Assembly: GCA_023261645.1 (NCBI GenBank)
Contig: JAHFOO010000004.1
Coordinates: 4,486-68,485 of the forward strand
From: Candidatus Moraniibacteriota bacterium
GTDB lineage: Bacteria > Patescibacteriota > Minisyncoccia > Moranbacterales > UBA1568
Direction: 5' to 3'
Length of the DNA: 64,000 bases
The stretch's first letter is position 1. Every line of letters starts with the position of its first letter. The notes under the pieces are model-generated. The model saw only the letters and a program-made list of their open reading frames with translations, did no database searches and was not told where the DNA came from. Below, in pieces: positions 9,521 to 57,520 of the stretch. The position numbers were made by a program, and so were the translations under genes.

Positions 9521-9559
9521 CTGCCTGTCATCCCTACGGCAGATAAACCGGTAGGCAGG
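9521..9559 (+). repeat. copy of dispersed GC-rich palindromic repeat (long form), followed by T-run; probable terminator of ftsW
   Basis: CTGCCTGTCATCCCTACGGCAGATAAACCGGTAGGCAGG then TTTTTT; same family at 42183 and 57480. Confidence 0.7.
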
Positions 9560-9586
9560 TTTTTTCTCTACTATTATATCAACTCT

Positions 9587-9811
9587 ATGAGAGCTCTTCT
9601 TATCGCTCAAGCTGTTGTCGCTATATTCCTTACCGTATCCATCCTTCTTCAGAATCGGGGATCTGGACTCGGAGGCGTTTTTGGTGGTGATTTTGGTGGC
9701 TATTACACCAAACGCGGTATGGAAAAGTTTCTCTTGTATGCTTCGGTATTGTTTGCTTTTATTTTTTTCGTCCTCGCTATTGTCAATGTTCGATTGGCGC
9801 TTAATTCTTAA
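9587..9811 (+). CDS. secG: preprotein translocase subunit SecG
   Basis: 74 aa, two TM segments, LLQNRGSGLGGVFGG motif typical of SecG. Confidence 0.8.
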   Translation: MRALLIAQAVVAIFLTVSILLQNRGSGLGGVFGGDFGGYYTKRGMEKFLLYASVLFAFIFFVLAIVNVRLALNS

Positions 9812-9847
9812 AATACGCGTATTCGTATCTTAGAATCCATTGCTATT

Positions 9848-11527
9848 TTGAAAAAGCTGAATTGGACGCGTTTATTCCAGGCTTTGAAAATGAGAGACAA
9901 AATTGTTGTTTCTTTTTTTGCTGTGGCCGGAACAGTTGCACTTCTTTTTTGGCTGGGTGCTTTGTATGTGGTTTCTACGAAAGCGGTTCCGAAAGCCGGC
10001 GGGGAGTATACTGAAGGAGTGGCCGGACAACCGCGCTATGTCAATCCTATTCTCTCACAAACGAGTGAGGCGGATGCCGATTTGGTAGAGCTCATTTATA
10101 GCGGACTGTTCAGTTATGATGCTTCCGGCAATCTCGTGAAGCGTTTGGCAGCGGATTACAATATTTCGGAAGATGGAAAAATCTACACAGTAACTCTGCG
10201 TCCTGGAACCAAATGGCATGATGGAGAGGAATTGACTGCAGACGATGTCTTGTATACCGTCCAAGCCATTCAGAATCCGGCCTACAAAAGCCCTCTGCGT
10301 TCAAGTTGGCAATCTGTCGACGCTGTAGCAGTCGATCGTTATACGGTGACATTTTCGCTACAGAAACCATACTTCGGATTTTTGGAAAACCTGACTGTCG
10401 GTATTCTGCCGAAACATATCTGGGAAAACATCGCTCCGGAGAACTTTTTCTTGGCTGATTATAACCTGGCCCCTATCGGTAGTGGTCCCTACAGCTTCTT
10501 CAAATCTGAGAAAGACTCGAGCGGTAATATGCTTTCGTATGAACTGCGTGCATGGAATAATTATTTCGACGGAGCGCCTTTCATTTCAAAAGTCATCTTT
10601 CATTTCTATCCTGATGAAACCGCTCTCATCGACGCATACAACAGGAAGGAAGTGCTTGGAATCGATTCTGTTATGCCGGAAAACCTACCCAAACTCGAAG
10701 AACGCAAGAGTACGCATATTTATGCCATCAATATCCCGCGCATCTTCTCTGTTTTCTTCAATGTGACCAAAAATATTCCTCTTGCGAGTGACGAAGTGCG
10801 TGAGGCTTTGAATTACGCCACCGATCGGGAAGCAATCATCCAAGAAGTGCTTTCAGGCAAAGGACAACCTGCTTTTGGAGCCTTCCTTCCTTTTATGACG
10901 GGATATGATGCGAGTGTGATTATGCCGTCTTTCGATAAAAATAAAGCGAACGAGATTCTCGATGCACACGGATGGGTACGTGGAGAAGATGGCGTGCGCG
11001 TCAAGGGAGGCGTGGTTTTGGAAATGACGCTGACTGTGCCAGATTGGCCGGAACTCAGTCGCACAGCCGATCTGCTCAAGACACAGTGGGAACAGATAGG
11101 TGCGCGGATAACAGTGAATGTCGTCGGGGCTTCGGATCTCCAGCAGAACATCATCCGTCCACGTGAATATCAGGCACTTCTTTTCGGCGAAGCGGCAATG
11201 CTCGATTCCGACCCGTATTCTTTTTGGCATTCGAGCCAGAAGCGTGATCCGGGATTGAATCTCGCTTTGTTCGATAATAAGGGTGCGGACGATATTCTTG
11301 CATCGCTTCGTGAAGAGTTGGACAAAGAGAAACAGAAAGAACAATACAGAGCTTTTCAAGAAATACTGACCAAAGAAAATCCGGCTGTTTTTCTCTATAC
11401 TCCGACCTATTTGTATGTCGTGAGCAGTACCATCAAAGGAATCGACATACAGAACATCGATACTGCTCATTCTCGTTTGAGTAATATCAAGGATTGGTAT
11501 ATCGATACGAAGAGGATAAAGAAGTAG
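9848..11527 (+). CDS. ABC transporter substrate-binding protein, family 5 (OppA/DppA/NikA-like), orphan (no permease genes nearby)
   Basis: N-terminal TM/signal anchor, SBP_bac_5-like conserved regions. Confidence 0.75.
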   Translation: MKKLNWTRLFQALKMRDKIVVSFFAVAGTVALLFWLGALYVVSTKAVPKAGGEYTEGVAGQPRYVNPILSQTSEADADLVELIYSGLFSYDASGNLVKRLAADYNISEDGKIYTVTLRPGTKWHDGEELTADDVLYTVQAIQNPAYKSPLRSSWQSVDAVAVDRYTVTFSLQKPYFGFLENLTVGILPKHIWENIAPENFFLADYNLAPIGSGPYSFFKSEKDSSGNMLSYELRAWNNYFDGAPFISKVIFHFYPDETALIDAYNRKEVLGIDSVMPENLPKLEERKSTHIYAINIPRIFSVFFNVTKNIPLASDEVREALNYATDREAIIQEVLSGKGQPAFGAFLPFMTGYDASVIMPSFDKNKANEILDAHGWVRGEDGVRVKGGVVLEMTLTVPDWPELSRTADLLKTQWEQIGARITVNVVGASDLQQNIIRPREYQALLFGEAAMLDSDPYSFWHSSQKRDPGLNLALFDNKGADDILASLREELDKEKQKEQYRAFQEILTKENPAVFLYTPTYLYVVSSTIKGIDIQNIDTAHSRLSNIKDWYIDTKRIKK

Positions 11528-11536
11528 AACTTCTTT

Positions 11537-11645
11537 AAATTCCTAATTCCTAATGTCTAATACCTAATAAAAATTCTAACCTCAAATTTTGAAATTAAGA
11601 AATTGGACATTTTATTGGAAATTAGAAATTAGATATTAGAAATTT
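11537..11645. repeat. AT-rich palindromic element built from CCTAATN heptamer arrays (copy A), in promoter region of the PGI/PMI gene
   Basis: cctaattcctaatgtctaatacctaat ... caaattttgaaat ... ggaaattagaaattagatattagaaatt; homologous copy at 36504-36609. Confidence 0.7.
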
Positions 11646-11690
11646 TTTCATTGTAGAGAATAAAGTAATATAATAAGAAATATAAAGAAT

Positions 11691-12734
11691 ATGGAACCCT
11701 CTTCTGTACTCAATCCCTTAGATACATTCAATTTTCGTCAGATGATTATCGATAGTCCCGATCAATTCCGTGTTGGTTTCGAGATTGCCAAGGGTGTCCA
11801 TATTCCAGGGTCTTTCAAATCAGTGATGATATCGGGTATGGGAGGATCGGCGCTTCCTGGCAATATCTTCCGTATCTATCTCAATGATCTTTTTCGCAAA
11901 GACGCCGGAGACGAACAACCGCTCGCCATTTATCAGAATCGTTCCTATACTCTTCCTCCGGAAGCTTTCGATAATTGTCTCAATTTCATTTGTTCTTATT
12001 CCGGCAATACGGAAGAAACCATCGCCTCTTTCGAGATGGCATTGGAGCATCATCTTCCCTGCATCGGACTTTCAAGCGGAGGGAAAGTGGAAGAGATCTG
12101 TCTGGCGAATGATATTCCTCATATCAAATTGCCCGTTCCTTTTCCTGGTTTTCAGCCTCGTGTGGGTACCGGTTATTTCTTTGGATCGATGTTCCAGATA
12201 CTCATCAATCTCGGCTTGGTCCGCGATACCACGGAAGAATTGCTTGCGGAAGCTGAGAAGATAAGACAATCATTGCCAGATTTGGAGGAACAAGGAAAAT
12301 TGTTATCGAAGAAACTCGTCGGCAAGACTCCTGTTATTTATGCTGACACCAAATACAAATCAGTCGCTATGGTGTGGAAGATAAAGTTCAATGAGAATGC
12401 CAAGACCCCGGCTTTCTGGAATTTTTTCCCAGAATTGAATCACAATGAGATGGTGGGGTGGACATTGCCTCAAGGGAAGTTTATGATTCTGATGCTTCGT
12501 GACAATGATACTCATCCGAGAATTCTGAAACGTCTCGAAGTGACAGCGGAGCTACTCCGTGGCAAAGGCATCGAAGTGGAGGCGATCGATATGGTAGGCA
12601 CGAGTGTCTTTGAAAAGATATTCGGGACTATCCTCATCGCAGATTTTGCTTCATATTACTTGGCGCTGGAATATGGACAGAACCCGACACCGGTGGATAT
12701 GGTGGAAGATTTGAAAGAACGTTTAGTTGCTTAA
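11691..12734 (+). CDS. bifunctional phosphoglucose/phosphomannose isomerase (SIS-domain, archaeal-type PGI/PMI)
   Basis: SIS-domain motifs (SGMGGSA, CSYSGNTEET) and PGI/PMI C-terminal region. Confidence 0.75.
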   Translation: MEPSSVLNPLDTFNFRQMIIDSPDQFRVGFEIAKGVHIPGSFKSVMISGMGGSALPGNIFRIYLNDLFRKDAGDEQPLAIYQNRSYTLPPEAFDNCLNFICSYSGNTEETIASFEMALEHHLPCIGLSSGGKVEEICLANDIPHIKLPVPFPGFQPRVGTGYFFGSMFQILINLGLVRDTTEELLAEAEKIRQSLPDLEEQGKLLSKKLVGKTPVIYADTKYKSVAMVWKIKFNENAKTPAFWNFFPELNHNEMVGWTLPQGKFMILMLRDNDTHPRILKRLEVTAELLRGKGIEVEAIDMVGTSVFEKIFGTILIADFASYYLALEYGQNPTPVDMVEDLKERLVA

Positions 12735-12861
12735 ACCCGATAGTGAAACTTCGAAAGTATTGGTCTAGTAATAGCATGAAGGGTTTTGTAATGTTGGTTT
12801 GACTGAGATAGAATATAATTTTTTTAAGAAACTTCGTTTATTCGAAGTTCTACTACCGGGT

Positions 12862-13893
12862 ATGTATAGCGTTATTCTGTGCGGTGGGTCAGGGACACGA
12901 TTGTGGCCGATGAGTCGAAAAAATTTTCCGAAACAGTTTTTGAAACTCTATGGAGACACGTCTCTTTTGCAGGAGACATACCTTCGTATTCGAGAACTTC
13001 TTCCATCGACACATATTTTCTTCGTCACGAACAGAGAGAATTCCCGCAATGTTTCAGAACAGATCCGTGATATTGAGAAAGATTTCAAGGAGGAACAGAT
13101 TATCATCGAACCGGCAGCACGCAATACCGCACCGGCCATTGCTCTTGCGATGAAATACTTGACTGAAAGGGTCGGAATAGATGCAGGAGAATCTGTACTT
13201 TTTCTTCCATCCGATCATTATATCGGGAACAAGAATGTGTATCTGAAGACGATAGAGCGGGCCCTTAGTGCCAAAGAGGATCGCATCGGAACAATCGGTA
13301 TCGTACCGACAAAGGCCGAGACAGGGTATGGATATATCCGCAAGGGAGGAAAGGAATCCAATGACTCTTTCTCCGTACTCGAATTCAAAGAGAAGCCAGA
13401 TAGGGCGACCGCAGAAAAATATCTCGCTTCGGGAGAATATCTCTGGAATTCCGGTATGTATTTTTTCAATGCACGGACGTTCTTCCAGGAACTGAGAGCG
13501 TATGCGCCGGAAATAGCTTCTTTCTTCGAAGATGATTTCGCAACGATCTTGACCAAGTATGCTTCTGCTCCGGCCGTATCCATCGATTATGCCGTATCGG
13601 AGAAATCGAAGCGTGTCGTCGTCTTTGCAGGGGATTTCGGTTGGAGTGATATCGGATCATTTGATAGCCTGGCAGATATTATCGGACACAATCCGGCCGC
13701 GAGACACATCGGTATCGATTCGAAGAACGTGTATACGTACAGTACGGAAAATCGTCTGATAGCGACTATCGGCGTGGAGGATTTGATTGTCGTGGAGACC
13801 AAGGGCAGTATCCTCATTTGCAAGCGCGGACATGCCGAAGATGTCAAAAAAGTAGTGGAAAAATTGAAAGAGAATGAAGAAAAAGAGCTTTAA
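12862..13893 (+). CDS. manC: mannose-1-phosphate guanylyltransferase (GDP-mannose pyrophosphorylase)
   Basis: SVILCGGSGTRLWPMSR...PKQF N-terminal nucleotidyltransferase signature; ATG at 12862 preferred over upstream TTG at 12799. Confidence 0.85.
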   Translation: MYSVILCGGSGTRLWPMSRKNFPKQFLKLYGDTSLLQETYLRIRELLPSTHIFFVTNRENSRNVSEQIRDIEKDFKEEQIIIEPAARNTAPAIALAMKYLTERVGIDAGESVLFLPSDHYIGNKNVYLKTIERALSAKEDRIGTIGIVPTKAETGYGYIRKGGKESNDSFSVLEFKEKPDRATAEKYLASGEYLWNSGMYFFNARTFFQELRAYAPEIASFFEDDFATILTKYASAPAVSIDYAVSEKSKRVVVFAGDFGWSDIGSFDSLADIIGHNPAARHIGIDSKNVYTYSTENRLIATIGVEDLIVVETKGSILICKRGHAEDVKKVVEKLKENEEKEL

Positions 13894-14088
13894 ACAAAGC
13901 ATATATCCGTATCATTATTGACAGAGGCTAAAAGGTGTGCTAAAATAAGTAATCGAGAAACTTGGGTCGATTGACTCTTGTTTTGAAAAGCCTTCTTCAT
14001 TTTTGAACAGATCTTTCCCTGTTAGAAACAAAAGGGATTCTTTTTGTAGAAGTCGATAAAAAATCCTTCGTAGTGTAAACGAAGTATG

Positions 14089-14154
14089 GCCGAGATGGCG
14101 GAATTTCTACCTGTCGGTAGACAGGCCTGCTGCCGGCAGGCAGGGGTAGACGCA
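14089..14154 (+). pseudogene. tRNA-Leu-like 5' fragment (acceptor + D arm) interrupted by palindromic repeat copies
   Basis: GCCGAGATGGCGGAATT[tctacctgtcggtagacaggcctgctgccggcaggcagg]GGTAGACGCA; bracket removed gives canonical tRNA-Leu 5' half; no anticodon or T arm follows. Confidence 0.55.
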
Positions 14155-14181
14155 TAGTAAAGAAACAAGATAGTATGTGGT

Positions 14182-14436
14182 ATGAAATGTTTTGTATATG
14201 CTTTGAAAAGTGATGTGGATGGCAGTTTGTATATAGGGATGTCATCCGATGTTTCAAAAAGATTGAAACAGCATAATAGTGGTATGACTTCCTCAAACCG
14301 TCATCGTACTCCATTTAAATTATTTTATAGTAAAGAATTTGAAACTACGGTAGAAGCAAGAAAATATGAGAAATATTTGAAATCAGGTATAGGAAGAGAG
14401 TTTTTAAAGAATTTACGAGATCAAAAGTCTCATTAA
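14182..14436 (+). CDS. small GIY-YIG nuclease-family protein (UPF0213/YhbQ-like)
   Basis: VYALKSDVDGSLYIGMSSDVSKRLKQHN ... E...ARKYEKYLK GIY-YIG catalytic-core pattern; 84 aa. Confidence 0.7.
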   Translation: MKCFVYALKSDVDGSLYIGMSSDVSKRLKQHNSGMTSSNRHRTPFKLFYSKEFETTVEARKYEKYLKSGIGREFLKNLRDQKSH

Positions 14437-14442
14437 TTGAAA

Positions 14443-14526
14443 GCCCTGGTGGCGGAATTGGTAGACGCACTAGCTTCAGGTGCTAGCGTGAGCAATCACA
14501 TGGGAGTTCGAGTCTCCCCTAGGGCA
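14443..14526 (+). tRNA. tRNA-Leu (anticodon CAG), long variable arm, no encoded CCA
   Basis: cloverleaf: acceptor gccctgg/ctagggc, anticodon loop cuuCAGgu, 16-nt variable arm, T-loop gttcgagtc. Confidence 0.9.
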
Positions 14527-14708
14527 CAACGTAATATAATTTTCCCTTGATAAAAAGAGAGGAGATTCATCTTTCGTGTAATTCATTCTTGCTCTGGATA
14601 ACAAAACACCGAGGTAAGAAAACTAATCAATCTTGCGAATATGCCTCTGCTCTGGTTTCATTATGAAACGTATGTGACGAGAGGCGGTTCGGAGAATAAG
14701 TAAACAGT

Positions 14709-34269: not shown

Positions 34270-36447
34270 TTATTTAAGTTTATGAGGATTGTGATTGGGA
34301 CAGACTTTGTTTGAACATCTTTCGGGGATAGTTTTTGTCCCTTCCATCATCAGTGATTTGCATAGCGGACAGAGATTGCCAGTCGGTTTGGCTTTGATGG
34401 CATTTTTACAGTCGGGATAGTTGGAACAGCTGTAGAAAATACCGAAGCGGCCGCGACGTTCGGTCATTTTCCCCTGCCTACCGGCAGGCAGGCCTTGCGC
34501 ACACGTAGGGCAGGTGATGTCGGTTGTCGGGAGTGCGTTCTCATCTTTTTTGATGAATTTACATTTCGGATAATTGGAACAGGCGATGAATTTCCCGAAT
34601 TTCCCGGTACGTTCCATCAGTTTCCCATCCTTGCATTTCGGACAAGCCTCGCCGGTTTCCTTCGGCGGTTCGACTACTTTGCCTTCTTCGGTCAGAGCGC
34701 CGTCACACTCCGGGAAACGTGAACAGCTGAAGAATTTGCCGTTGCGAGCCAGTTTGATAACCATTTTCGCTCCGCATTTCGGACAGACGGTACTCTCCGG
34801 AGCATCGCCCATATTGGTGACTTTTTCTATCTTGTCTTTGCTCTTCACTTCTTTGGCGAATGGCAGGTAGAAATCTTTGAGCGTTTTCTCGTATTCACGA
34901 GTGCCTGCAGCGATATCATCGAGCTTGTTCTCCATATCGGCAGTAAATGTTTCTGATACCATATTTTCGAAGTGTTTGAAGAGGAAATCATCGACGACCA
35001 TACCGGTATCCGTCACACTGAGTGCTTTGCCGACCTTTTCGACATAGCCACGGTCTTGGATGGTTTTTACGATGGATGCATAGGTGCTCGGTCTGCCGAT
35101 TCCACGCTTCTCGAGTTCTTTGACGAGGCCGGCTTCAGAATATCGTTGTGGTGGTTCGGTTTGTTTCTCTTCGGATGTGATTTTTTCCAGATCGAGCGGA
35201 TCAGAGGTGGCGACTATGGGCACTTCGACGTCGTCTCCGCGCGAAGCTTTGTCGAGAGCGAGCCATCCGTCTTTGATCAAATGTGAACCACTGACTGAAA
35301 AATTGGGGAGCGCTCGATCGGTCGTATTGGCGATAATTTTCGTACGAAGTATTTCTGCATCACTCATCTGTGAAGCGAGTGTTCTCGTACGGATAAGCGT
35401 ATAGAGCTTCTTTTCGTCTTCGGTTGCGCCGGCGGTTTTCTTGGATGCATCCGTAGGCCGGATGGCTTCGTGGGCTTCCTGGGCATTTTTACTCTTGGTC
35501 TTGTAGTGACGGACAGAGAGATATTTTTCACCGAATTCTTTTTTCACGACAGCGATGATTTCCGGCAGGGCAGTTTCGGAAAGAGAGATACTGTCTGTGC
35601 GCATATAAGTGATGAACCCATTTTCGTACAATTTCTGAGCTGCACGCATCGTACGGGAGGGGGACATCCCGAGCCGTGAACTGCCTGCCTGTTGAAGTGT
35701 CGATGTCGTGAACGGCGCATACGGACGACGGAGAGCCTCCGTTGTCTTCACTTCAACTATTTCCCATTGTTTTTTCTTAGCAAGATCAAGAATATTTTCT
35801 GTGGTTTTTTTGTCTTTCGGTTGTTCGGTACAAGTGAAAACTATCTTTTCTTTCTTTTCCGTTATGCATTCTGCCGTAATGACGAAATATGCTTCAGGAA
35901 TGAAGCTTTTGATTTCTTTTTCTCGGAGGGCGAGGATGTGGAGCGCTGGAGATTGTACCCGTCCGGCAGAGAGACCATAACGAACTTTTTTCCAGATGAG
36001 TCCGGAGAGATCGTATCCGACCAATCGGTCGAGGACACGTCTTGCTTCTTGGGCTTTGCGGAGATTGATATCGAGATCACCTGGATGAGCGACGGCTTCT
36101 TTGACGGCTTTCTCGGTGATTTCGTAGAAAAGGACACGCTTGGGTTTCTTGATACCACAGGTCTCAGCCACATGCCAAGCGATAGCCTCACCTTCGCGGT
36201 CAGGGTCGCTTGCAAGGAGGACAGTGTCGCTTTTTTTGACGAGTGATTTGATATCTCTGACGACGGATTCTTTACCGGGAGAAATGATATAGCGTGGAAT
36301 GAAACCACCCTCGATGTCGATAGCATCTTTGTTCGATTTTGGGAGGTCGCGGACGTGGCCGACAGAGGCGACGACTTTGTACTCGCCACCGAGATACTTC
36401 TCGATGGTTTTGGCTTTGGATGGAGATTCTACTATCAGTAACTTCAT
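34270..36447 (-). CDS. topA: DNA topoisomerase I with C-terminal zinc-ribbon repeats
   Basis: TOPRIM (MKLLIVESPSKAKTI), active-site Tyr region, four C4 zinc ribbons. Confidence 0.92.
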   Translation of the reverse strand: MKLLIVESPSKAKTIEKYLGGEYKVVASVGHVRDLPKSNKDAIDIEGGFIPRYIISPGKESVVRDIKSLVKKSDTVLLASDPDREGEAIAWHVAETCGIKKPKRVLFYEITEKAVKEAVAHPGDLDINLRKAQEARRVLDRLVGYDLSGLIWKKVRYGLSAGRVQSPALHILALREKEIKSFIPEAYFVITAECITEKKEKIVFTCTEQPKDKKTTENILDLAKKKQWEIVEVKTTEALRRPYAPFTTSTLQQAGSSRLGMSPSRTMRAAQKLYENGFITYMRTDSISLSETALPEIIAVVKKEFGEKYLSVRHYKTKSKNAQEAHEAIRPTDASKKTAGATEDEKKLYTLIRTRTLASQMSDAEILRTKIIANTTDRALPNFSVSGSHLIKDGWLALDKASRGDDVEVPIVATSDPLDLEKITSEEKQTEPPQRYSEAGLVKELEKRGIGRPSTYASIVKTIQDRGYVEKVGKALSVTDTGMVVDDFLFKHFENMVSETFTADMENKLDDIAAGTREYEKTLKDFYLPFAKEVKSKDKIEKVTNMGDAPESTVCPKCGAKMVIKLARNGKFFSCSRFPECDGALTEEGKVVEPPKETGEACPKCKDGKLMERTGKFGKFIACSNYPKCKFIKKDENALPTTDITCPTCAQGLPAGRQGKMTERRGRFGIFYSCSNYPDCKNAIKAKPTGNLCPLCKSLMMEGTKTIPERCSNKVCPNHNPHKLK
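34473..34492. repeat. 20-nt perfect-family palindrome CCTGCCTACCGGCAGGCAGG embedded in-frame in the topA zinc-ribbon coding region
   Basis: minus-strand translation ...CPTCAQGLPAGRQGKMTERRG; the repeat encodes LPAGRQG. Confidence 0.8.
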
Positions 36448-38095: not shown

Positions 38096-38115
38096 CCTGC
38101 CTGTCGGCAGACAGG
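38096..38115. repeat. palindromic repeat copy (short form) between tRNA genes
   Basis: CCTGCCTGTCGGCAGACAGG. Confidence 0.75.
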
Positions 38116-38787: not shown

Positions 38788-40338
38788 ATGACACAAAAAC
38801 AAGCGTTCAGTCTTCTTAAGTCAGGTGTCAATATTTTTTTGACCGGAGAGGCAGGATCAGGGAAGACGCATATCATCAATCAGTACACTGAGTATCTCAA
38901 TTTGCACGAGATCGATTTTGCTGTGACCGCATCGACCGGTATCGCGGCCACGCATATCCACGGTATGACCATACATTCATGGAGTGGTATCGGCGTCCAT
39001 CAGGAACTCGATGATGATGAGTTGAAGCATATCGCAGAGAACCGCTATGTCGCGAAGCGTATCAAGAAGGCGAAAGTGCTCATCATCGATGAGGTCTCTA
39101 TGCTGGATGGAAAGATTTTGACGCTGGTAGAGAGGGTTTGTCGCAAGATACGTAAATTGAAAGTGCCATTCGGAGGATTACAAGTTGTCTTGGTAGGGGA
39201 CTTTTTCCAATTGCCACCGGTGGCGAAAAAGGGGATAGCCATAGAATTCGCTTTTGACTCCGACGCTTGGCAGGGTTTGATGCCCGTCGTCTGTTATCTC
39301 ACGGAACAACATCGCCAAGAAGATAAAAAGTTTCTCGATATTCTTTCAGCTATTCGGAGCAATACGTTTGATGAAATTCATTTCGAAAATTTGAGCGAGC
39401 GCATCATCTCTCAGGAAGAATTGCCGGACGATATGACACGCTTATTTTCTCACAACACCAATGTCGATACGATCAATATGAGAGAATTACAAAAGCTTCC
39501 AGGAAAAACGAAATTGTTCGTGATGGCCGCACGGGGGCCGGAAACACTGACTGATGCTCTCATTCGTGGATGTCTTTCTCCGGAACGTTTGGAATTGAAG
39601 GAAGGGGCGACGGTGATGTTCACGAAAAATAATACGAATCAAGGTTTCGTGAATGGAACACTGGGAACCGTCGTCGGTTTTTCTGCAGGAACACATTATC
39701 CGATAGTGAAAACGTCGGCTGGCACACGTATCGAAACGGAACCGATGGAATGGACCATCGCCGAGGGAGACGAAGTGTTCGCCAAGATCACTCAGATACC
39801 GCTTCGTTTGGCGTGGGCGATGACTATTCATAAGAGCCAGGGTGTCAGTCTCGATTCGGCAGTGATGGACCTTTCTGGTACTTTTGAGTACGGTCAGGGG
39901 TATGTGGCGCTTTCACGGGTGCGGACGCTTGCGGGCATTCACCTTCTCGGTGTGAATGCACGGGCATTTCAAGTCCATCCTCTCGTCTCTGCAGAAGATG
40001 AACGATTTCGCGATGCTTCTCTGCTGGCAGAAAAGGAGTATGATCTTCTGTCACCGGAAAGAATCGAAGAAATTGAGAAGAATTTCATCGTTCTTTGTGG
40101 AGGTAAGCAGAAAAAAGAGAAAAAGGAGCAGAAGAAAAAAGGAAAATCGGCAGAAAAGTCGTCTGAAAAAATCCGCGAAGAATATCCCAAGGCGTATGCG
40201 AAGTGGACCGTCGAAGAGGATGAGCAATTGAAAAAACTTTTTCACAAAGGAGTACAGATTCATGAGATGACAGAGGTGTTCGGTAGGAAACGAGGTGCCA
40301 TCTCTTCACGTCTCAAGAAGCTCGAACTCACAAGTTGA
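38788..40338 (+). CDS. PIF1/RecD-like superfamily 1 DNA helicase fused via Lys-rich linker to a C-terminal Myb/SANT-like helix-turn-helix domain
   Basis: Walker A GEAGSGKTH, DEVSM Walker B, helicase motifs; C-terminus KWTVEEDEQLKKLFHKGVQIHEMTEVFGRKRGAISSRLKKL. Confidence 0.7.
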   Translation: MTQKQAFSLLKSGVNIFLTGEAGSGKTHIINQYTEYLNLHEIDFAVTASTGIAATHIHGMTIHSWSGIGVHQELDDDELKHIAENRYVAKRIKKAKVLIIDEVSMLDGKILTLVERVCRKIRKLKVPFGGLQVVLVGDFFQLPPVAKKGIAIEFAFDSDAWQGLMPVVCYLTEQHRQEDKKFLDILSAIRSNTFDEIHFENLSERIISQEELPDDMTRLFSHNTNVDTINMRELQKLPGKTKLFVMAARGPETLTDALIRGCLSPERLELKEGATVMFTKNNTNQGFVNGTLGTVVGFSAGTHYPIVKTSAGTRIETEPMEWTIAEGDEVFAKITQIPLRLAWAMTIHKSQGVSLDSAVMDLSGTFEYGQGYVALSRVRTLAGIHLLGVNARAFQVHPLVSAEDERFRDASLLAEKEYDLLSPERIEEIEKNFIVLCGGKQKKEKKEQKKKGKSAEKSSEKIREEYPKAYAKWTVEEDEQLKKLFHKGVQIHEMTEVFGRKRGAISSRLKKLELTS

Positions 40339-41470: not shown

Positions 41471-41567
41471 TGGAGGGTTTCACGGCAGGGCGGATTGAAT
41501 GTCTTTTTGAAGGTGTTCTGAATGAAGATAGGTATATGGTTTGACAAAGATAGGAAGGCGTCTCATT

Positions 41568-42119
41568 ATGGATTTATGTTCTTTCAACGAACTCAAGGAG
41601 GAGAATATGTTACTCATTGCAGAAAAGAACCCCTATGTATCGGAGGAAACAGCATTGTTTGATGACTTGGTTAGAGTAGGTGAAGAAAAAGCACACATTA
41701 CTTTGTCAAGAAATCTCAGGCTTTTCCTTGTAGATTGTCTCATTGAGCATCTACAGGATCCTGATATCGTGTGGCGTATATTGGCGCTTGATTTTTTGGA
41801 ATCCGATCGTCTATCAGGAGCAGAAAGGGTAGTCCGCTTGAAGCGTTGTGGAGATGCCAGTCTTATTCTTGCAGGATTTTTTCCTGAGCGAGCGCTTCGT
41901 CTCCGTGTTAGTTCCACTTACTTTCGTCAGATGGGCCAATCATTTTTTGGTACACTGGCGACACATTTGGAAGTGACTGCGGTGACGATGGAGCAAGGAC
42001 AATTCTTCAATGAGGTAGCACGCGGTTTTGAAATGTTGGAGCGAGTCTTGAACTGTGCCAGAGGAAAAGCGCAGGATGAATGGGGAGCCTTTCGAAGGTT
42101 CCGCGCAAGGTTGAACTGA
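41568..42119 (+). CDS. hypothetical protein
   Basis: SD AGGAAGG 9 nt upstream of ATG 41568 (ORF-track start 41541); followed by duplicated terminator. Confidence 0.5.
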   Translation: MDLCSFNELKEENMLLIAEKNPYVSEETALFDDLVRVGEEKAHITLSRNLRLFLVDCLIEHLQDPDIVWRILALDFLESDRLSGAERVVRLKRCGDASLILAGFFPERALRLRVSSTYFRQMGQSFFGTLATHLEVTAVTMEQGQFFNEVARGFEMLERVLNCARGKAQDEWGAFRRFRARLN

Positions 42120-42182: not shown

Positions 42183-42221
42183 ACTGTCTGTCATGTCTAC
42201 GGCGGATAAATCGGTAGACAG
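42183..42221 (+). repeat. palindromic repeat copy (long form) upstream of membrane-protein gene promoter
   Basis: CTGTCTGTCATGTCTACGGCGGATAAATCGGTAGACAGG. Confidence 0.75.
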
Positions 42222-42306
42222 GGAGAGTGAGTATCGGCCCGATTCGACTCGAATGAATGCCCGCTATTCGTGGTATAATGAACCTGTAATTTGTTAAGAT
42301 TTCTTT

Positions 42307-49468: not shown

Positions 49469-50011
49469 ATGATGGGAAAGAGGACCCGTGAAAAAAAATT
49501 CTTTTTACTCTATGAGAGTCAGGCAGACGCTCTTTTTCGTTTTGTTTTCTTTCGGGTGAGCGATCGTGAGGGAGCCAAAGACATCGTTCAAGATACTTTT
49601 CTCAAGATGTGGGAGGTGCTCGATTCGAGTCGGAAAATAGAGAATGAGAGAGCTTTCCTTTTCCGCATCGCCTCCAATCTGGTCATCGATCGGTATAGGA
49701 AATCGAAAGAATACTCTTTGAACAGTCTCACTGAACAGGGTTTCGATGTCCCAGATGATCCAGGCACACCGATCGAAACACAGATCGATGCCGATACGAC
49801 GCTTGAGTTCCTGCAGGATATTCCGGAAAAATATCGTGAAGCGGTATGGCTTCGTATGGTGGAAGAATGGTCTGTGAGAGACATTGCTGAGCTTTCGAAT
49901 GAGTCTGAGAATGTCATATCGGTACGTATTCATCGCGGACTCAAGTTGTGGCGGAAGCGAGTGAGTGAGGAATTTGGTAAGAAATCACGTCCTGAAACGT
50001 CAGAAGAATGA
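49469..50011 (+). CDS. ECF-type RNA polymerase sigma factor (sigma-70 regions 2 and 4)
   Basis: region 2 (ALFRFVFFRVSDREGAKDIVQDTFLKMW) and region 4 HTH (WSVRDIAELSNESENVISVRIHRG). Confidence 0.8.
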   Translation: MMGKRTREKKFFLLYESQADALFRFVFFRVSDREGAKDIVQDTFLKMWEVLDSSRKIENERAFLFRIASNLVIDRYRKSKEYSLNSLTEQGFDVPDDPGTPIETQIDADTTLEFLQDIPEKYREAVWLRMVEEWSVRDIAELSNESENVISVRIHRGLKLWRKRVSEEFGKKSRPETSEE

Positions 50012-50053: not shown

Positions 50054-50073
50054 GATTTCGAGACCTGCCTGCC
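50054..50073. repeat. perfect 20-nt palindrome CCTGCCTGCCGGCAGGCAGG (short-form repeat) after sigma-factor gene
   Basis: exact palindrome centred on CCGG. Confidence 0.8.
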
Positions 50074-50231
50074 GGCAGGCAGGTGAAAATTATGCAGAGT
50101 GCGAAGGCCTATCGCGTGATAAGCCGACAATCGATAAGTAATTTTCAGCCGAAATCAGGTACTTTTATACGACAAGTAGTATTTATTTTTTTAGCCTATA
50201 CATTCAGATTTTTAACTGGCTCTAGAACGTT

Positions 50232-51092
50232 ATGAATGAAAATGAGCAAAAAATGAATATCGGACAAGAAGAACGCAAGGCGTTCGTTTCGCTTCGTTCA
50301 CGATCGCTTTTGAGAGAGGAAAAGGATATGATGCGACAGGCGTTGCAGACATTGATACATCGATCCGGGATGATCGGCACCCCGGTTCCGAGAGGAATCT
50401 TCGCTTCTTTTTTGAACCGATCATTTGCCGTTTCAGCAAGTGCTCTGGCGCTTATCATCGGGAGCAGCCTTGGTGTCGCGAGAGCTGCAGAAAATTCGCT
50501 CCCGGGCCAGACCCTCTATCCGGTGAAAATAAATGTCAATGAATCGGTGATAGGGAGCTTCAAACGTTCTGATACGGCACGTGCGGATTGGGAACGGGAG
50601 CGGGCAGGACGGAGAATTACTGAAGCAGAAACACTCGCAGAGGAAGGGAAGTTGGGAGATAAAGAAAAAAATGAGATAGAACGACATCTTTCGGAGAATC
50701 GAAAATCATTTGAGGAAATTGAAGGACGAACGGTCTCTGATGATGAATTTTTTCCACAACAGATAAAAGGAGAAACGAAGAAAATCAATGTACGTGTCGA
50801 GCATACTGAAAATAAAGAATTTGTTCATATCGATGAACGGGAAGAGACGAAGAGTGATGAAACAAAAGAGAAAGGGAATGGTTTCGTTGACACGGAAGAG
50901 TTTCATGAATCCTTCGGTGGATATACGGAACAAGGAACAAAAATAGAAAAAGAAAAGAAGACGGGAGATAAGCCTGATTCAAAGAATCGGTTCACCGAAA
51001 TGTCATCTTCGAAGGCAGAGGAGGTGTCGAAAGACAAGAGTATCGACAAAAAGGTTGATCCATCCGAAAAAATCGATTTACAAGACAAATGA
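50232..51092 (+). CDS. single-pass membrane protein with K/E-rich extracytoplasmic tail; putative anti-sigma factor
   Basis: position after ECF sigma gene, one TM helix (FAVSASALALIIGSSLGVA); no domain recognised. Confidence 0.35.
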   Translation: MNENEQKMNIGQEERKAFVSLRSRSLLREEKDMMRQALQTLIHRSGMIGTPVPRGIFASFLNRSFAVSASALALIIGSSLGVARAAENSLPGQTLYPVKINVNESVIGSFKRSDTARADWERERAGRRITEAETLAEEGKLGDKEKNEIERHLSENRKSFEEIEGRTVSDDEFFPQQIKGETKKINVRVEHTENKEFVHIDEREETKSDETKEKGNGFVDTEEFHESFGGYTEQGTKIEKEKKTGDKPDSKNRFTEMSSSKAEEVSKDKSIDKKVDPSEKIDLQDK

Positions 51093-51874: not shown

Positions 51875-53443
51875 GTGAAAAAATCACTGGCAATCAATCA
51901 TGGAACGCAAGTTATCTCTTCCAAGACGGCCGTAAAAGCATCGAAACGAACTATTCCTGCCAAAACGGTCGCGAAGGAGGAGCCATCCAGGCTCGTCAAA
52001 GATCTGTTGGAAAAGAAAGGTCGTTTCAATCCGACGAAATTGTTCATTCTAGACACCAACGTTTTGATGCACGATCCGATGAGCTTGTTCCGTTTCGAGG
52101 AACACGATGTCTTCATCCCGATGATGGTGTTGGAAGAACTTGATGCCAACAAGAAAGGAGTATCGGAAGTGGCTCGCAATGCGAGACAAGTGAGTCGTAC
52201 CTTCGATGAGATCATCTCCGGCCATGAGGACATAAATATGAAAGACGGTATCGAACTTTCCGTCCGATCAAAAGGTCAGGCGACTGGACGACTCTTTTTT
52301 CAGACTGAGGCGATTGATGTCGCTTTACCGGCGATGTTGCCGACTGCCAAGGCCGACAATCAGATCATCGGCGTAGTCATATATCTCAAGGAAAAATATC
52401 CGAAACGTGAAGTGATTTTGGTGTCGAAAGACATCAATATGCGGATCAAGGCCAAAGCTCTCGAACAGGTTGCACAGGATTACTTCAATGATCAGGTATT
52501 GGAGGATACCGATTTGCTCTATGCCGGCGCATCAGAATTGCCATCGAATTTCTGGGAAATGTGTGGTAAGCGTATGAAGTCCTGGAAGGAAGATGGTCAG
52601 ACATTCTATGATGTCAAAGGATCGTTCTGCTCAGGACTGCTCATAAACGAGCTTGTCTGGGAGGATGGTGATCATCCATTTCGCGCCATCGTGTGTGGGC
52701 GTGTCGGTCAGAGTGCCATTCTTCGGACGTTTCGGGATTATACCGCTCGTAAGAACAATGTCTGGGGCATTACGGCACGCAATCGTGAACAAAGTTTTGC
52801 TCTGAGTTTGCTAATGGATCCGGAGATTGATTTTGTTTCTCTTTCAGGACAGGCAGGTACCGGTAAGACGCTTATGACACTGGCGGCCGCGCTTGAACAG
52901 ACACTCACCAAGAAGTTGTACAGCGAGATCATCTTCACTCGTGTGACGATACCGGTTGGTGAAGATATCGGCTTTTTGCCCGGTACGGAAGAAGAAAAAA
53001 TGGCTCCGTGGATGGGTGCGTTGGATGACAATCTCGATGTGCTTGGTGCGGGTAGCGATCATGATGGACAGAAAGATGGTGAAGCCAAACACTCATCTGA
53101 TTGGAGCAGAGCGGCGACAGGAGATCTGATCCGTTCGCGTCTCAAAATAAAGTCACTCAACTTTATGCGTGGACGCACCTTCATCAATAAGTTCGTCATC
53201 ATCGATGAAACGCAGAATCTGACACCCAAGCAGATGAAAACGCTCATCACACGCGCCGGACCAGGGACGAAGGTGGTCTGTCTCGGCAATATCGCGCAGA
53301 TTGATACACCTTACCTCACGGAAGGGAGTTCCGGGTTGACGTATGTCGTCGAGCGTTTCAAAGGGTGGCTACACGGCGGGCATATAACGCTTCTGCGCGG
53401 TGAACGCTCGCGTTTGGCTGATTACGCCACTGAAGTACTCTGA
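51875..53443 (+). CDS. PIN-domain-containing PhoH-like ATPase (YlaK family)
   Basis: N-terminal PIN (FILDTNVLMHDP, acidic residues), C-terminal PhoH P-loop SGQAGTGKT. Confidence 0.85.
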   Translation: MKKSLAINHGTQVISSKTAVKASKRTIPAKTVAKEEPSRLVKDLLEKKGRFNPTKLFILDTNVLMHDPMSLFRFEEHDVFIPMMVLEELDANKKGVSEVARNARQVSRTFDEIISGHEDINMKDGIELSVRSKGQATGRLFFQTEAIDVALPAMLPTAKADNQIIGVVIYLKEKYPKREVILVSKDINMRIKAKALEQVAQDYFNDQVLEDTDLLYAGASELPSNFWEMCGKRMKSWKEDGQTFYDVKGSFCSGLLINELVWEDGDHPFRAIVCGRVGQSAILRTFRDYTARKNNVWGITARNREQSFALSLLMDPEIDFVSLSGQAGTGKTLMTLAAALEQTLTKKLYSEIIFTRVTIPVGEDIGFLPGTEEEKMAPWMGALDDNLDVLGAGSDHDGQKDGEAKHSSDWSRAATGDLIRSRLKIKSLNFMRGRTFINKFVIIDETQNLTPKQMKTLITRAGPGTKVVCLGNIAQIDTPYLTEGSSGLTYVVERFKGWLHGGHITLLRGERSRLADYATEVL

Positions 53444-53516
53444 AGAAAAGAGGAAAATGAAACCGCATACGAGAGAATATCTTGTATGCGGGTTTTTTTA
53501 TGAGCCTGATCATCTC

Positions 53517-55164: not shown

Positions 55165-55392
55165 CTAGCGTCTGTAGGTTCTTTTTGTCTCCTCATTGTC
55201 TTCTTTCGTATCTATTTCTCGGAGACGGGCGAGTTCAGCTTCCGGATTCGCAAGGCCGGCAAGAATAGTTTTTTTGTTGAAAGAACGCGCGAGTGGATCA
55301 ACGCCGACTTTCGTTTTATACTCCTGTGCCAACCTTCTCAATTCTTCTTCGGGGGTTTCTTGTGTGAAATCAAATTTGAATTGTTCTGGCAT
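55165..55392 (-). CDS. hypothetical small acidic protein
   Basis: ORF only; terminator-like hairpin upstream on + strand. Confidence 0.3.
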   Translation of the reverse strand: MPEQFKFDFTQETPEEELRRLAQEYKTKVGVDPLARSFNKKTILAGLANPEAELARLREIDTKEDNEETKRTYRR

Positions 55393-55562
55393 AGGAGGGT
55401 TAAAATAGTATGGAATTATGTATCTCTATTATACTCGCATATCCCATTTTTTGTGAAGAGTCTCTACTTAGAAGTCGAACTTCTAAGTACTTCTCAGGAG
55501 GATCTTCCAGAGGAAAAATTTCGTAAAAGATGATAGAATAGAAGAGGAAAGACAATACTCAT

Positions 55563-56309
55563 ATGAAAAAAATTGTTATTGGAATCGTCGGTTTGGTGGT
55601 GGTTTGCGTTTTGCTTATCGTTCTGTTTGGCATATATAAATTCAATTTTACCGATGGTGGTGATGCTGTACCAAAGAATGATGCACCTCTCGGCATTGCC
55701 TGCACGCAAGAAGCGATGATCTGTCCGGATGGTTCGACTGTCGGTCGTACCGGTTCGAAATGTGAATTTGCTCCGTGTCCTTCTTTGTCAGAAAAAAGAA
55801 ACCCATCTGAATTCATAGCGCCACTCGATCGAGCAAGCGAGAGAGTGACCAAGAAGCCATTCGGTATATTAATTGATCGGATGACATCTCCAGTGCAACC
55901 GGAACGGTTCAGCGGTTATCACACCGGGACTGATTTTGAAACATTTTCTGAGGAACAAGCTATCGATGTTTCTATTCGAGCTGTGTGTACTGGAACGATC
56001 ATTGAGAAAAAACAGGCCACAGGTTATGGCGGGGTGATCGTAGAGCGTTGTCAAAAGGATGCTGAAACGGTAACGGTTGTGTATGGACATTTGGCCCTTA
56101 AAAGTATCGGAGCGAGAGTCGGAGAAACGATAGAGCAAGGAAGTATCGTCGGTGTACTTGGAGCAGCGAAAAGTGCGGAGACGGACGGTGAGCGTAAGCA
56201 TCTCCATCTCAGTATTCACAAAGGCTCCCAAGTTGATATTCACGGATATGTTTCTTCACAGAAAGAACTCGGCCAGTGGATCGATCCCTGTCTGTTTGTA
56301 TGTAAATAG
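55563..56309 (+). CDS. M23-family (LytM-like) metallopeptidase, membrane anchored
   Basis: HTGTDF (HxxxD) and GHLHLSIH (HxH) motifs; N-terminal TM. Confidence 0.8.
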   Translation: MKKIVIGIVGLVVVCVLLIVLFGIYKFNFTDGGDAVPKNDAPLGIACTQEAMICPDGSTVGRTGSKCEFAPCPSLSEKRNPSEFIAPLDRASERVTKKPFGILIDRMTSPVQPERFSGYHTGTDFETFSEEQAIDVSIRAVCTGTIIEKKQATGYGGVIVERCQKDAETVTVVYGHLALKSIGARVGETIEQGSIVGVLGAAKSAETDGERKHLHLSIHKGSQVDIHGYVSSQKELGQWIDPCLFVCK

Positions 56310-56339
56310 CCCACAGTGTAATATTTTTTTGTTATAAAT

Positions 56340-56591
56340 ATGCCAACACTCCTTATTGATGTACGAACAAAAGAAGAGTATGAAGAACACCACGCAGTTG
56401 ATGCGGTGAATATTCCCGTTGAAGAAATATGTGATGGAAAACTTGGTGTCCTCGAAAATGTAGGAAAAGACACTCCTCTTCATCTCTATTGCCGGTCAGG
56501 CGCTCGTTCGGAAAAAGCGGAAGAGATGCTTCGTTCATTCGGCTATACTGATGTCGTGAACCTCGGTGGGTTGGGTGATAGGGTAATTTGA
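56340..56591 (+). CDS. single-domain rhodanese-like sulfurtransferase
   Basis: active-site loop CRSGARS. Confidence 0.8.
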   Translation: MPTLLIDVRTKEEYEEHHAVDAVNIPVEEICDGKLGVLENVGKDTPLHLYCRSGARSEKAEEMLRSFGYTDVVNLGGLGDRVI

Positions 56592-56672
56592 TGAATGAGG
56601 AAATTTGACTCCCTGGTGTATAATAGAAGTGTCATTCACCCAGTTAAATAATTTTAAATTTTTAACTAAAAT

Positions 56673-56927
56673 ATGTACTATGTATATGTGTTGTTCAGTA
56701 AAAAAGATAGCAAAAGATATATAGGGTATATTAATAATTTAAAATTAAGATTTGAGCACCATCAGAAAGGAAAGGTGGAATCTACAAAAAATAGGCGACC
56801 ACTAAGTCTTATTTACTACGAAGCATGTCTGAACCAACAGGATGCTACCTATCGGGAAAAGTATCTAAAGACTTATCATGGGAGTATGTTTATAAAAAAG
56901 AGGCTCAAATCTTATTTAACGGGGTAA
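56673..56927 (+). CDS. small GIY-YIG nuclease-family protein (paralog of 14182 gene)
   Basis: YVYVLFSKKDSKRYIGYINNLKLRFEHH...REKYLK; 84 aa. Confidence 0.7.
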   Translation: MYYVYVLFSKKDSKRYIGYINNLKLRFEHHQKGKVESTKNRRPLSLIYYEACLNQQDATYREKYLKTYHGSMFIKKRLKSYLTG

Positions 56928-56931
56928 ACAT

Positions 56932-57333
56932 ATGAAAAAGGGATACTATGGCAATATTGAAAAATTGACGCTCGCGAATGAGAATTTTCGCCAGGTTCTG
57001 TATACTGCCGAACATTGTCAGCTGGTACTGATGTCACTTTTGCCAGGTGAAGAAATCGGTCTTGAGACGCACACTGGAAATGATCAGTTCTTACGTTTTG
57101 AAAAAGGGGAGGGAAAAGTCATCATTGATGAGACAGAATATGTCGTCGGAGACGGTGACAGTGTCATCGTTCCTTCCGGGGCACGGCACAATGTCGTGAA
57201 TACCAGCGCAACAGAATCACTCAAACTCTATACGATCTATGCTCCTGCACATCACCAGGATGGGATGGTGCGTGCGACCCGCGCTCTCGCCGTAGCCGAT
57301 GACCCCGAGTTTGATGGCAAAACGACAGAATAA
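56932..57333 (+). CDS. cupin-domain protein
   Basis: cupin motifs G(X)5HXH-like ... GDSVIVPSGARHNV. Confidence 0.7.
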   Translation: MKKGYYGNIEKLTLANENFRQVLYTAEHCQLVLMSLLPGEEIGLETHTGNDQFLRFEKGEGKVIIDETEYVVGDGDSVIVPSGARHNVVNTSATESLKLYTIYAPAHHQDGMVRATRALAVADDPEFDGKTTE

Positions 57334-57426
57334 TGATATCATAGAAAAGAGAGAGGATAGCTGAATCGGTTTTTCGTCTCTCTACAATATAACGGGTATT
57401 CCCCGATCTTACCGGCACTGCGTTCG

Positions 57427-57520
57427 CCTGCCTGCCGGTAGGCAGGAAAACGAGAGTAAACTTTCGTTTCACTCACTTCCCTGTCTGCCGATTTATCTGC
57501 CGTAGGCACGACAGGCAGGG
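57427..57520. repeat. compound locus of palindromic repeats: short form CCTGCCTGCCGGTAGGCAGG plus inverted long form, separated by a hairpin
   Basis: 57427-57446 short form; 57480-57520 reverse-complement of long form seen at 9521 and 42183. Confidence 0.8.

Follow-up and report, generated by a model that had tools for sequence, protein, structure and literature searches.

The DNA analysed in this study (hereafter the window) is a stretch of 64,000 nt from a Candidatus Moraniibacteriota bacterium (GCA_023261645.1, contig JAHFOO010000004.1, positions 4,486 to 68,485), with a base composition of about 45% G+C, in which a family of GC-rich palindromes is dispersed and one palindromic site lies beside a small GIY-YIG nuclease gene and a tRNA gene. 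The short form of the repeat, here called P, is a 20-base GC-rich hairpin or palindrome, and the long form is a 39-nt derivative. A previous reading made from the letters and open reading frames (ORFs) of the window, the sequence-only reading, had recognised a dispersed family of at least seven copies; we count nine in 64 kb, of which three are long and six short, two of the latter in tandem. The short pattern CCTGCCTRYCGGYAGRCAGG matches exactly at 34473-34492, 38096-38115, 50064-50083 and 57427-57446 and with two mismatches at 14106-14125, and 100 dinucleotide-preserving shuffles give an expectation of zero matches; the 39-nt pattern is found at 9521-9559 (+), 42184-42222 (+) and 57480-57518 (-), again with none expected. 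The base-composition expectation against which the sequence-only reading had proposed to measure the motif is easily exceeded, though this is not the informative test. Most of the sites it listed were right, with 50054 to be corrected to 50064 and 42183 to 42184. Its copy at 14126 is real, but proves to be a 19-nt variant, CCTGCTGCCGGCAGGCAGG, directly abutting an unlisted two-mismatch copy of P at 14106, so that 14106-14144 is a tandem pair.

This tandem pair belongs to a compact unit at 14089-14527. The unit begins with the 5' piece of a tRNA-Leu pseudo-copy, GCCGAGATGGCGGAATT (14089-14105, +), which ends in the D-loop; there it is interrupted by the first P (14106-14125, allele TCTACCTGTCGGTAGACAGG, also found in L202 and L230, L-numbers being labels of the loci compared) and the 19-nt variant (14126-14144), and it continues as GGTAGACGCA (14145-14154, +) to stop before the anticodon arm. 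With the palindromes removed, 20 of 20 nt match positions 8-27 of tRNA-Leu. An ORF of 84 aa at 14182-14436 (+) follows, encoding a UPF0213/SLX1-like GIY-YIG nuclease (Pfam PF01541, E 1.6e-15; PDB 1zg2 and 1ywl, E ~1e-11) with the C-terminal motif YEKYLKSGIGREFL, and seven nucleotides past its stop codon begins an intact tRNA-Leu(CAG) at 14443-14527 (+). The order is thus GCCGAGATGGCGGAATT-P-P-GGTAGACGCA, the 84-aa ORF and tRNA-Leu(CAG), and the entire unit is preceded by a strong promoter-like site (13918-13946). The nuclease gene is also called in an independent assembly, L001, which differs from the window at 4 of 8,829 positions.

P as a discrete 20-nt insertion

Two of the window copies can be compared with empty sites in relatives. 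The copy at 34473-34492 lies within topA (34270-36447, minus strand) and is translated as part of a 7-residue insertion in a zinc ribbon, where AQGLPAGRQ replaces GK. The TopA of the window reads CPTCAQGLPAGRQGKM at this point, and all 40 of its 40 nearest homologues read CPTC-------GKGKM, without the seven residues; its identity is 91% to metagenome proteins and at most 88% to proteins named Candidatus Moranbacteria at NCBI. At the DNA level, the closest relative, L281, reads ACGTGTG-GCAAGG followed by GGAAAATG, and the window reads ACGTGTGCGCAAGG, then 20 nt corresponding to CCTGCCTGCCGGTAGGCAGG, then GGAAAATG. The filled site has gained exactly 20 nt without any duplicated flank, and the reading frame is restored by one extra base six nucleotides from P (~34499). 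The second empty site concerns the copy at 38096-38115, an asymmetric allele. It occupies a 3' (T-arm) fragment of tRNA-Met, and this fragment lies between the tRNA-Met gene pair of an Ala-Ile-Met-Met-Asp cluster. The corresponding tRNA-Met 3' fragment of L282 contains CGAACGAATCCACCCCCCGC, and that of the window runs CGGACGAATC-P-CACCGCCC. No copy of P was found in the relatives L281-L283 (41 kb in total).

In L282 (Candidatus Moranbacteria GCA_028699965.1, 4494-4914) the spacer between the tRNA-Met genes holds three tandem units of ~125 nt, all of which finish with a copied tRNA-Met 3' end and lack the palindrome; the window has one such unit, with a palindrome.

Many other tRNA fragments are likewise continuous across P. 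P is a discrete 20-nt insertion, present in tRNA fragments and also as solo copies, including within coding sequence, and we regard it as very probable that it is a mobile insertion. Its identity as a miniature inverted-repeat transposable element (MITE) was considered and rejected on the grounds that in topA, in tRNA-Met and in the tRNA fragments exactly 20 nt are gained with no target duplication.

P is found far beyond this lineage. When 596 Gb of DNA, one genome for each species, were scanned, the identical 20-mer CCTGCCTGCCGGCAGGCAGG was recovered from at least 120 genome loci in many phyla, where ~17 matches to the scan pattern are expected by our own arithmetic under a uniform model. 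Carriers include Bacteroidota, many groups of the Candidate Phyla Radiation (CPR, Patescibacteria), Omnitrophota, Planctomycetota, Nitrospirota, Chloroflexi and gammaproteobacterial metagenome-assembled genomes, and cultured organisms or complete chromosomes are represented by Winogradskyella, Flavobacterium, Olivibacter, Flagellimonas and Mesonia. A further 76 viral contigs carry P, some of them in 3-6 copies. The flanks of these loci are mutually unrelated, and the same asymmetric variants recur across phyla and viral contigs: among 287 distinct copies, 132 are the perfect palindrome, 54 are CCTGTCTGCCGACAGGCAGG or its complement, and 50 are CCTGCCTGCCGGTAGGCAGG or its complement. P is not a lineage-specific repetitive extragenic palindromic (REP) sequence. 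The sole bias in the flank logo is the near absence of T at -1 (5%) and of A at +1 (8%). Long ORFs contain 25% of 256 copies, compared with 63% of random positions. Most copies are solo; copies occur singly, in direct tandem or nested, in which case one P lies at the centre of another. The predicted hairpin has a stability of -13.9 kcal/mol as RNA and -8 as DNA. In one viral contig (L192, IMGVR_UViG_3300025106_000007, 3916-4083) at least seven head-to-tail copies of CCATGCCTACCGGCAGGCAGG with a 21-nt period lie in a 209-aa ORF, where the palindrome has been amplified as an in-frame 7-residue repeat.

Modules of palindrome, GIY-YIG gene and tRNA

The link between P and the GIY-YIG gene was approached from both sides. 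An iterated hidden Markov model search for GIY-YIG proteins over ~1.6 Mb of P-centred loci found 10 such ORFs, eight of them within 150 nt of P. When every ORF of at least 60 aa in 197 P-centred loci was clustered all against all, a test that presupposes no particular family, the only ORF family hugging P was again GIY-YIG (eight members, seven of them near P, median distance 25 nt), and no other candidate enzyme emerged from the neighbours in these 197 loci. For the reverse test, a metagenome scan from an alignment of five sequences yielded more than 512 relatives with the protein motif [RY]EKYLKSG, and 81 loci (80 metagenome and one viral) were picked by this motif alone. P with at most three mismatches lies within 400 nt of the ORF in 51 of the 81, usually 13-60 nt 5' of the start codon, and a tRNA lies within 400 nt in 71, usually on the same strand and beginning 1-20 nt past the stop codon; in all the remaining flank of these loci (~290 kb) there was one further P-like match, a weak one. 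Most of the 30 loci without P carry variant GC-rich palindromes at the same place, namely 19-nt and 16-nt forms, the mini form CCTGCAGG, CCCGCC...GGCGGG, or the same outer arms with a longer centre. The clades linked to tRNA-Glu and tRNA-Cys have unrelated GC-rich hairpins instead of P, which suggests that different nuclease clades have different partner hairpins. In the tRNA-Glu-linked loci L274 and L280, for example, the hairpins CACCGCGTCAAACGCGGTG and AGCACGTCTGACGTGCT, situated ~100 nt 5' of the ORF, replace the CCTG-type palindrome. It is almost certain from these counts that P and the tRNA-linked GIY-YIG gene are reciprocally and tightly associated. We found no description of the palindrome or of the module in the literature, either by sequence or by family and topic, in a search whose coverage leaves out most subscription journals, so that a prior description is possible; nor did we find any report of a tRNA-linked, hairpin-associated mobile arrangement for the UPF0213/SLX1 family.

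The modules come in two architectures. In architecture A, which is that of the window, the 5' part of tRNA X, often preceded by a few bases specific to the host, is interrupted by P and followed by a short A/T-rich spacer, the ORF and an intact tRNA X. In architecture B, the intact tRNA comes first, followed by the ORF and then by a 3' fragment with P (L053, L148, L236, L257, L266, L272, L273 and L269). The duplicated tRNA stretch measures 20-57 nt, is usually 95-100% identical to the intact gene, and generally ends in or near the anticodon loop. P and the intact tRNA invariably lie on opposite sides of the ORF, and the asymmetric allele of P is found in both orientations relative to ORF and tRNA transcription, on which ground a strand-specific RNA hairpin was rejected as an identity for P. 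The whole unit can form tandem arrays (L278, L245, L229 and, in Mesonia oceanica, L287), and its number differs between two Mesonia oceanica assemblies: at ~1900-2640 the unit of tRNA-Arg fragment, palindrome and GIY-YIG gene is present twice in L287 (GCA_902499555.1) and once in L288 (GCA_002719535.1). The same tRNA-Arg is closely followed by a tyrosine integrase gene. Full-length tRNA copies with P were seen in L205, L243 and L257, and a truncated P exactly at the duplication boundary in L273 and L148. In the cultured isolate Muricauda sp. SCSIO 64092 (L284, CP095413.1, 1850-2314), the tRNA fragment of a tRNA-Met module bears two long-centre hairpins that differ from each other, located at position 9/10 and where the D-loop ends.

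When 52 distinct P insertions were mapped on the cloverleaf of the neighbouring intact tRNA, 31 fell at a stem-loop boundary (17% of tRNA positions), 15 in a loop or linker (34% of positions) and six within or between stems (49% of positions). With each combination of tRNA type and position counted once, the boundary share is 11 of 22 by our own tally. P typically sits at the 3' end of the D-loop, at the 9|10 junction, at one or other edge of the anticodon loop, or in the T-loop; within tRNA fragments P prefers stem-loop junctions.

The nuclease is a bare GIY-YIG core of ~80 aa (75-85; PF01541, E 1.6e-15 and 9.9e-13), with no DNA-binding domain beyond that core. Its invariant residues are Y6, Y17, G19, R27, H31 and E63, of which Y6, Y17, R27, H31 and E63 are catalytic. 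The UPF0213 family includes YhbQ of E. coli and YazA of B. subtilis. The nearest solved relatives are the UPF0213 proteins BH0048 and EF2693 (PDB 1zg2, E 1e-11, and 1ywl, E 5e-11), followed by SLX1 structure-specific endonucleases (E 4e-6 and weaker) and, far weaker, by the catalytic domain of I-TevI. The SLX1/YhbQ/YazA family has been named as such (PMC7017083). The clade comprises 5,015 representatives at 50% identity (E<=1e-3) and at least 7,453 clusters at 90% identity (E<=1e-10), whose members bear database names no more specific than 'GIY-YIG nuclease family protein' or 'putative endonuclease'; named members belong to Bacteroidota, Omnitrophota and CPR groups, and P was found in these phyla too. 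No homologue was found in collections of cultured phages or plasmids (E<=1e-6). Three library representatives (P0121, P0215 and P0267) are 157-214 aa long with two GIY-YIG cores and are probably fused tandem units, and many others of 100-130 aa are probably ORF calls extended upstream through the hairpin.

In a neighbour-joining tree of 85 members, the grouping is by tRNA type: the Leu-linked proteins form one large clade, the Arg-linked ones more than one, and there are further clades for Lys, Gly, Met, Cys, Glu and Asn. Palindrome variant and insertion point within the tRNA fragment both go with the nuclease subclades, which indicates that the hairpin is inherited with the gene. P itself is nearly invariant between the Leu and Arg clades, where the proteins are 45-55% identical, and this near-invariance despite nuclease divergence points to a constraint on the sequence itself and not on pairing alone, which argues for a putative sequence-specific recognition of P. 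In these modules the gene lies between an intact tRNA and a partial duplicate bearing P, and gene lineage, tRNA type and hairpin type co-vary.

Long forms and other contents of the window

The remaining copies in the window are intergenic. The long copy at 9521-9559 (+), between ftsW/rodA (8320-9438) and secG (9587-9811), consists of the outer arms of P with an extra centre of ~19 nt, followed by TTTTTT; that at 42184-42222 (+) lies 3' of a terminator-like hairpin of the ORF at 41541-42119 and 5' of a DUF5671 gene; and the reversed copy at 57480-57518 (-) has in common with it the extra flanks TTTTTATTACCAAAC and GA(G)AGTGAGT, amounting to ~15 nt on one side and ~10 nt on the other. All three retain the outer arms and have one specific centre in common. 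This 39-nt form was seen in none of the ~290 loci examined other than the window, and other lineages have long-centre variants of their own (L142/L187/L193, L237, L222, L231, L284); we regard the 39-nt form as a local derivative that has itself multiplied. Among the short copies, the one at 50064-50083 is a perfect P with an extracytoplasmic function (ECF)-type sigma factor gene (49469-50011) on one side and a DUF5667 gene (50232-51092) on the other, and that at 57427-57446 lies 94 nt past a cupin gene (56932-57333). Just 5' of secG, within 9471-9562, the long palindrome with its TTTTTT begins no more than ~20 nt past a good promoter-like site (TTGACG-17-TAGAAT with TG), an arrangement that could be attenuator-like, a terminator or a coincidence.

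The proposal that most copies lie just after genes holds for five of the nine, which are 50-150 nt 3' of a co-directional ORF; of the other four, two belong to the tRNA-Leu fragment, one interrupts the coding sequence of topA and one stands between tRNA genes. That some copies are followed by T-runs and probably act as terminators is not borne out: only the 9521 copy has a T-run, a consensus scan flagged no copy in 9300-14700, and one copy is translated within TopA, so that a terminator function is plausible for the 9521 copy alone and was rejected for the family. Gathering-threshold scans with Rfam 15 recovered only rRNA, tRNA and a group I intron in the window, and no family at the repeat sites.

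A second small GIY-YIG ORF at 56679-56927 (+) belongs to a different subclade, with REKYLKTYHG in place of REKYLKSGxG. It has no adjacent tRNA or hairpin, two palindrome copies lie ~500 nt downstream past the cupin gene, and it is possibly related to the module. A PIN-PhoH fusion protein (51875-53443) and a PIF1-type helicase (38788-40338) are encoded near palindrome copies, with no evident link to the repeats. Besides the DUF5671 and DUF5667 genes, the window contains a 5S rRNA (6854-6962), six tRNAs and a 23S rRNA match at 2759-6676, which spans 3,918 nt compared with a model of 2,925 nt and encloses a group I intron match and a 178-aa LAGLIDADG homing-endonuclease ORF (intron and ORF at 4802-4974 and 5148-5684). 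A 16S rRNA is absent 5' of the 23S in the window. Such features are usual for the rRNA genes of CPR bacteria. Together with the TopA identities given above, these contents mark the window as part of a CPR contig.

Proposed mechanism, alternatives and relation to known systems

Our preferred reading, which we hold to be somewhat probable, is that P is the cis-acting hairpin of widespread selfish tRNA-linked GIY-YIG modules and spreads from them as solo copies as well; that the GIY-YIG nuclease itself mobilises P is about an even call. The association between P and the nuclease is a matter of direct count, and from it we infer the following mechanism. Each module has a stand-alone nuclease gene of the UPF0213/SLX1 clade, encoding 75-85 aa, co-oriented with an intact tRNA and 1-20 nt away from it. 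The product of this gene would be structure-specific, recognising the extruded P hairpin or cruciform and, in general, junctions of single-strand and double-strand DNA, and its cuts would produce breaks through which the module recombines into tRNA genes via its tRNA homology. The module may be excised as a circle by recombination between the repeats, be cut at P and undergo 'ends-in' integration into an intact tRNA gene, a scheme that is compatible with the direct repeats, with a P lying midway along the tRNA homology, with both architectures and with tandem arrays. P itself would be released and inserted anew through these cuts, which would leave solo copies in intergenic DNA, in other P copies and occasionally in coding sequence, and such solo insertions would account for P outnumbering the nuclease genes. 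In the window, 14089-14527 would be the autonomous copy, and the short copies at 34473, 38096, 50064 and 57427 and the long ones at 9521, 42184 and 57480 non-autonomous. The fullest form of this proposal is that the 20-nt hairpin is itself mobile, among the smallest such elements known and nearly unchanged across phyla and phages, and is mobilised by a new selfish class of ~80-aa SLX1-like GIY-YIG nucleases that colonise tRNA genes by partial duplication; this we advance tentatively, as a possibility that we would not yet call probable.

Several points weigh against the preferred reading. GIY-YIG enzymes hydrolyse DNA, and none is known to insert it. The circle scheme by itself leaves the solo copies unexplained, and since the stretches examined of the viral contigs with 3-6 copies of P contain no GIY-YIG gene, any mobilisation in those contigs would have to be in trans. 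The correlation between P type and nuclease clade could reflect co-inheritance and not interaction. The intact tRNA beside the nuclease keeps any tRNA-based recognition site, which is awkward for classical homing. Finally, inverted repeats flanking solo copies show but a mild excess (19% have a stem of at least 5, compared with 9%, chiefly because of nested copies), and no significant hairpin is seen at the empty site in topA (z = 0.16); with this target unstructured and the enrichment weak, targeting of P is not strictly structural. The stronger proposition that P always enters pre-existing hairpin loops was rejected on the same evidence, a structural preference being clear only in tRNA fragments.

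The viral contigs, together with the fact that most copies are solo, are also what one would expect if P moved independently of the nuclease, by some host or phage process that inserts at single-strand/double-strand junctions. P would then accumulate in modules because their displaced tRNA fragments are neutral, hairpin-rich DNA, and modules in which P splits the direct repeats would be deleted less often, so that selection would be for stability and not for a nuclease site. Modules are indeed flanked by direct repeats of 20-57 nt that P splits, and loci with direct repeats but no canonical P exist. However, ~63% of modules (more with variants) have P in a fragment of ~40 nt, compared with at most ~1 per 7 kb even in the P-rich window, an enrichment of more than 100-fold; palindrome variant and position track nuclease subclades, and the neighbour clustering brought up no other enzyme, so that we consider this explanation unlikely. 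Less probable still is that P acts mainly as RNA, as a hairpin protecting or delimiting the nuclease mRNA co-transcribed with the tRNA (at its 5' or 3' side depending on the architecture), with solo copies serving as REP-like 3' stabilisers or terminators. The constant placement of P on the ORF side opposite the intact tRNA, the stability of the hairpin, the promoter-like site at 13918-13946 and the five window copies 50-150 nt past genes, one with a T-run, would all suit such a role, but it does not explain why the sequence of P is near-invariant across phyla while the ORF falls to 45-55% identity, nor the topA insertion, nor why P is inserted at all; moreover, the asymmetric allele is found pointing both with and against transcription, and eight of the nine window copies have no U-tract.

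A short, imperfect GC-rich palindrome in many copies, mostly intergenic and without target duplication, also recalls a classical REP or bacterial interspersed mosaic element (BIME) mobilised by a REP-associated tyrosine transposase (RAYT), that is, an IS200/IS605-like Y1 transposase encoded elsewhere in the genome. We judge this very improbable, as no Y1 transposase domain was found in the window or among the recurrent neighbours in the 197 loci, the sequence is common to many phyla, unlike REPs, and there are neither a conserved flanking tetranucleotide nor inverted doublets of the REPIN (paired REP) kind. The absence of a RAYT-like gene had already been noted in the sequence-only reading, and it agrees with our Pfam scans, which found no RAYT or other transposase domain among ~50 window ORFs of at least 100 aa. 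An IS200/IS605-type palindrome-associated transposable element (PATE) was rejected for want of TnpA or TnpB domains in the window or among the recurrent neighbours. As to a chance match or an assembly or sequencing artefact, the carriers are mostly metagenome assemblies, and a hairpin adaptor could in principle leave a perfect palindrome behind. Such an origin almost certainly does not apply, given that P is present in cultured isolates and complete chromosomes, that flanks are continuous across it in tRNA fragments and, by way of a second-site change that keeps topA in frame, in a protein gene, that alleles and variants recur, that shuffles predict no copies, and that the window agrees with L001.

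If the fullest form of the proposal is true, a large uncharacterised UPF0213-type family of thousands of clusters gains a role as nucleases of mobile elements, and DNA insertion at single-strand/double-strand junctions would have a route that is neither HUH nor DDE. If the link is functional, it provides, beside REP/RAYT, a second and mechanistically different case of a hairpin repeat with a dedicated nuclease. The mobile sequence crosses phylum boundaries and reaches the reduced genomes of CPR bacteria, where repeats are scarce. For annotation, the palindrome breaks tRNA gene predictions, makes pseudo-tRNAs and inflates ORF calls through N-terminal extensions across the hairpin, and it can alter essential proteins, here TopA. 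It is also a simple metagenome marker for the modules, and the cultured carriers Mesonia oceanica and Muricauda/Flagellimonas sp. SCSIO 64092 allow direct testing.

With the REP/BIME and RAYT systems of Enterobacteria and Pseudomonas, P has in common a short GC-rich hairpin, mostly intergenic, inserted without target duplication and with possible side effects at mRNA ends, as well as many non-autonomous copies beside one or a few linked nuclease genes flanked by the repeat. The likeness to REP/BIME elements drawn in the sequence-only reading therefore stands as far as a dispersed, mobile, hairpin-forming and mostly intergenic repeat is concerned, and ends where the partner and the distribution are considered: the enzyme is a GIY-YIG (UPF0213/SLX1-like) hydrolase and not an HUH/Y1 transposase of the RAYT/IS200 type, P is only 20 nt long and essentially identical across phyla and phage contigs rather than lineage-specific, it has neither a GTAG-type guide tetranucleotide nor inverted REPIN doublets, and its autonomous unit is linked to tRNA genes and contains a duplicated tRNA piece. 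Free-standing GIY-YIG homing endonuclease genes, such as SegB in the tRNA gene region of phage T4 and I-TevI, resemble the module in the GIY-YIG core with the same invariant residues, in being selfish genes in or next to a conserved target (the tRNA), in having lineages specific to one target type, and perhaps in polymorphic presence or copy number, the module being seen once or twice in the two Mesonia oceanica assemblies. The module differs in its size of ~80 aa without a separate DNA-binding domain or an intron, in keeping the tRNA intact via partial duplication, in the hairpin that accompanies the gene and also spreads alone, and in having no relative among the cultured phages searched.

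Palindromic selfish DNA that sits in frame in essential protein genes, and also in RNA genes, is represented by the Rickettsia palindromic elements (RPEs), which are 100-150 bp long and restricted to the genus; no nuclease gene is known to be linked to them. Other comparable elements occur in fungal mitochondria, namely the GC clusters of yeast, the PstI palindromes that flank tRNA genes in Neurospora, and the double-hairpin elements located by a mobile endonuclease ORF in Allomyces. These are likewise GC-rich palindromic mini-elements in an AT-richer genome that insert intergenically, by tRNA genes and in frame in coding sequence, and they occur beside free-standing endonuclease ORFs with a duplicated piece of the target gene. 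They are organellar and lineage-specific in sequence, whereas P is spread over the chromosomes of many bacterial phyla and over phage contigs and has a defined partner enzyme family. Among all these systems, the GC-rich palindromes and double-hairpin elements of fungal mitochondria, found with endonuclease ORFs and tRNA genes, are the nearest conceptual relatives of P and its modules.

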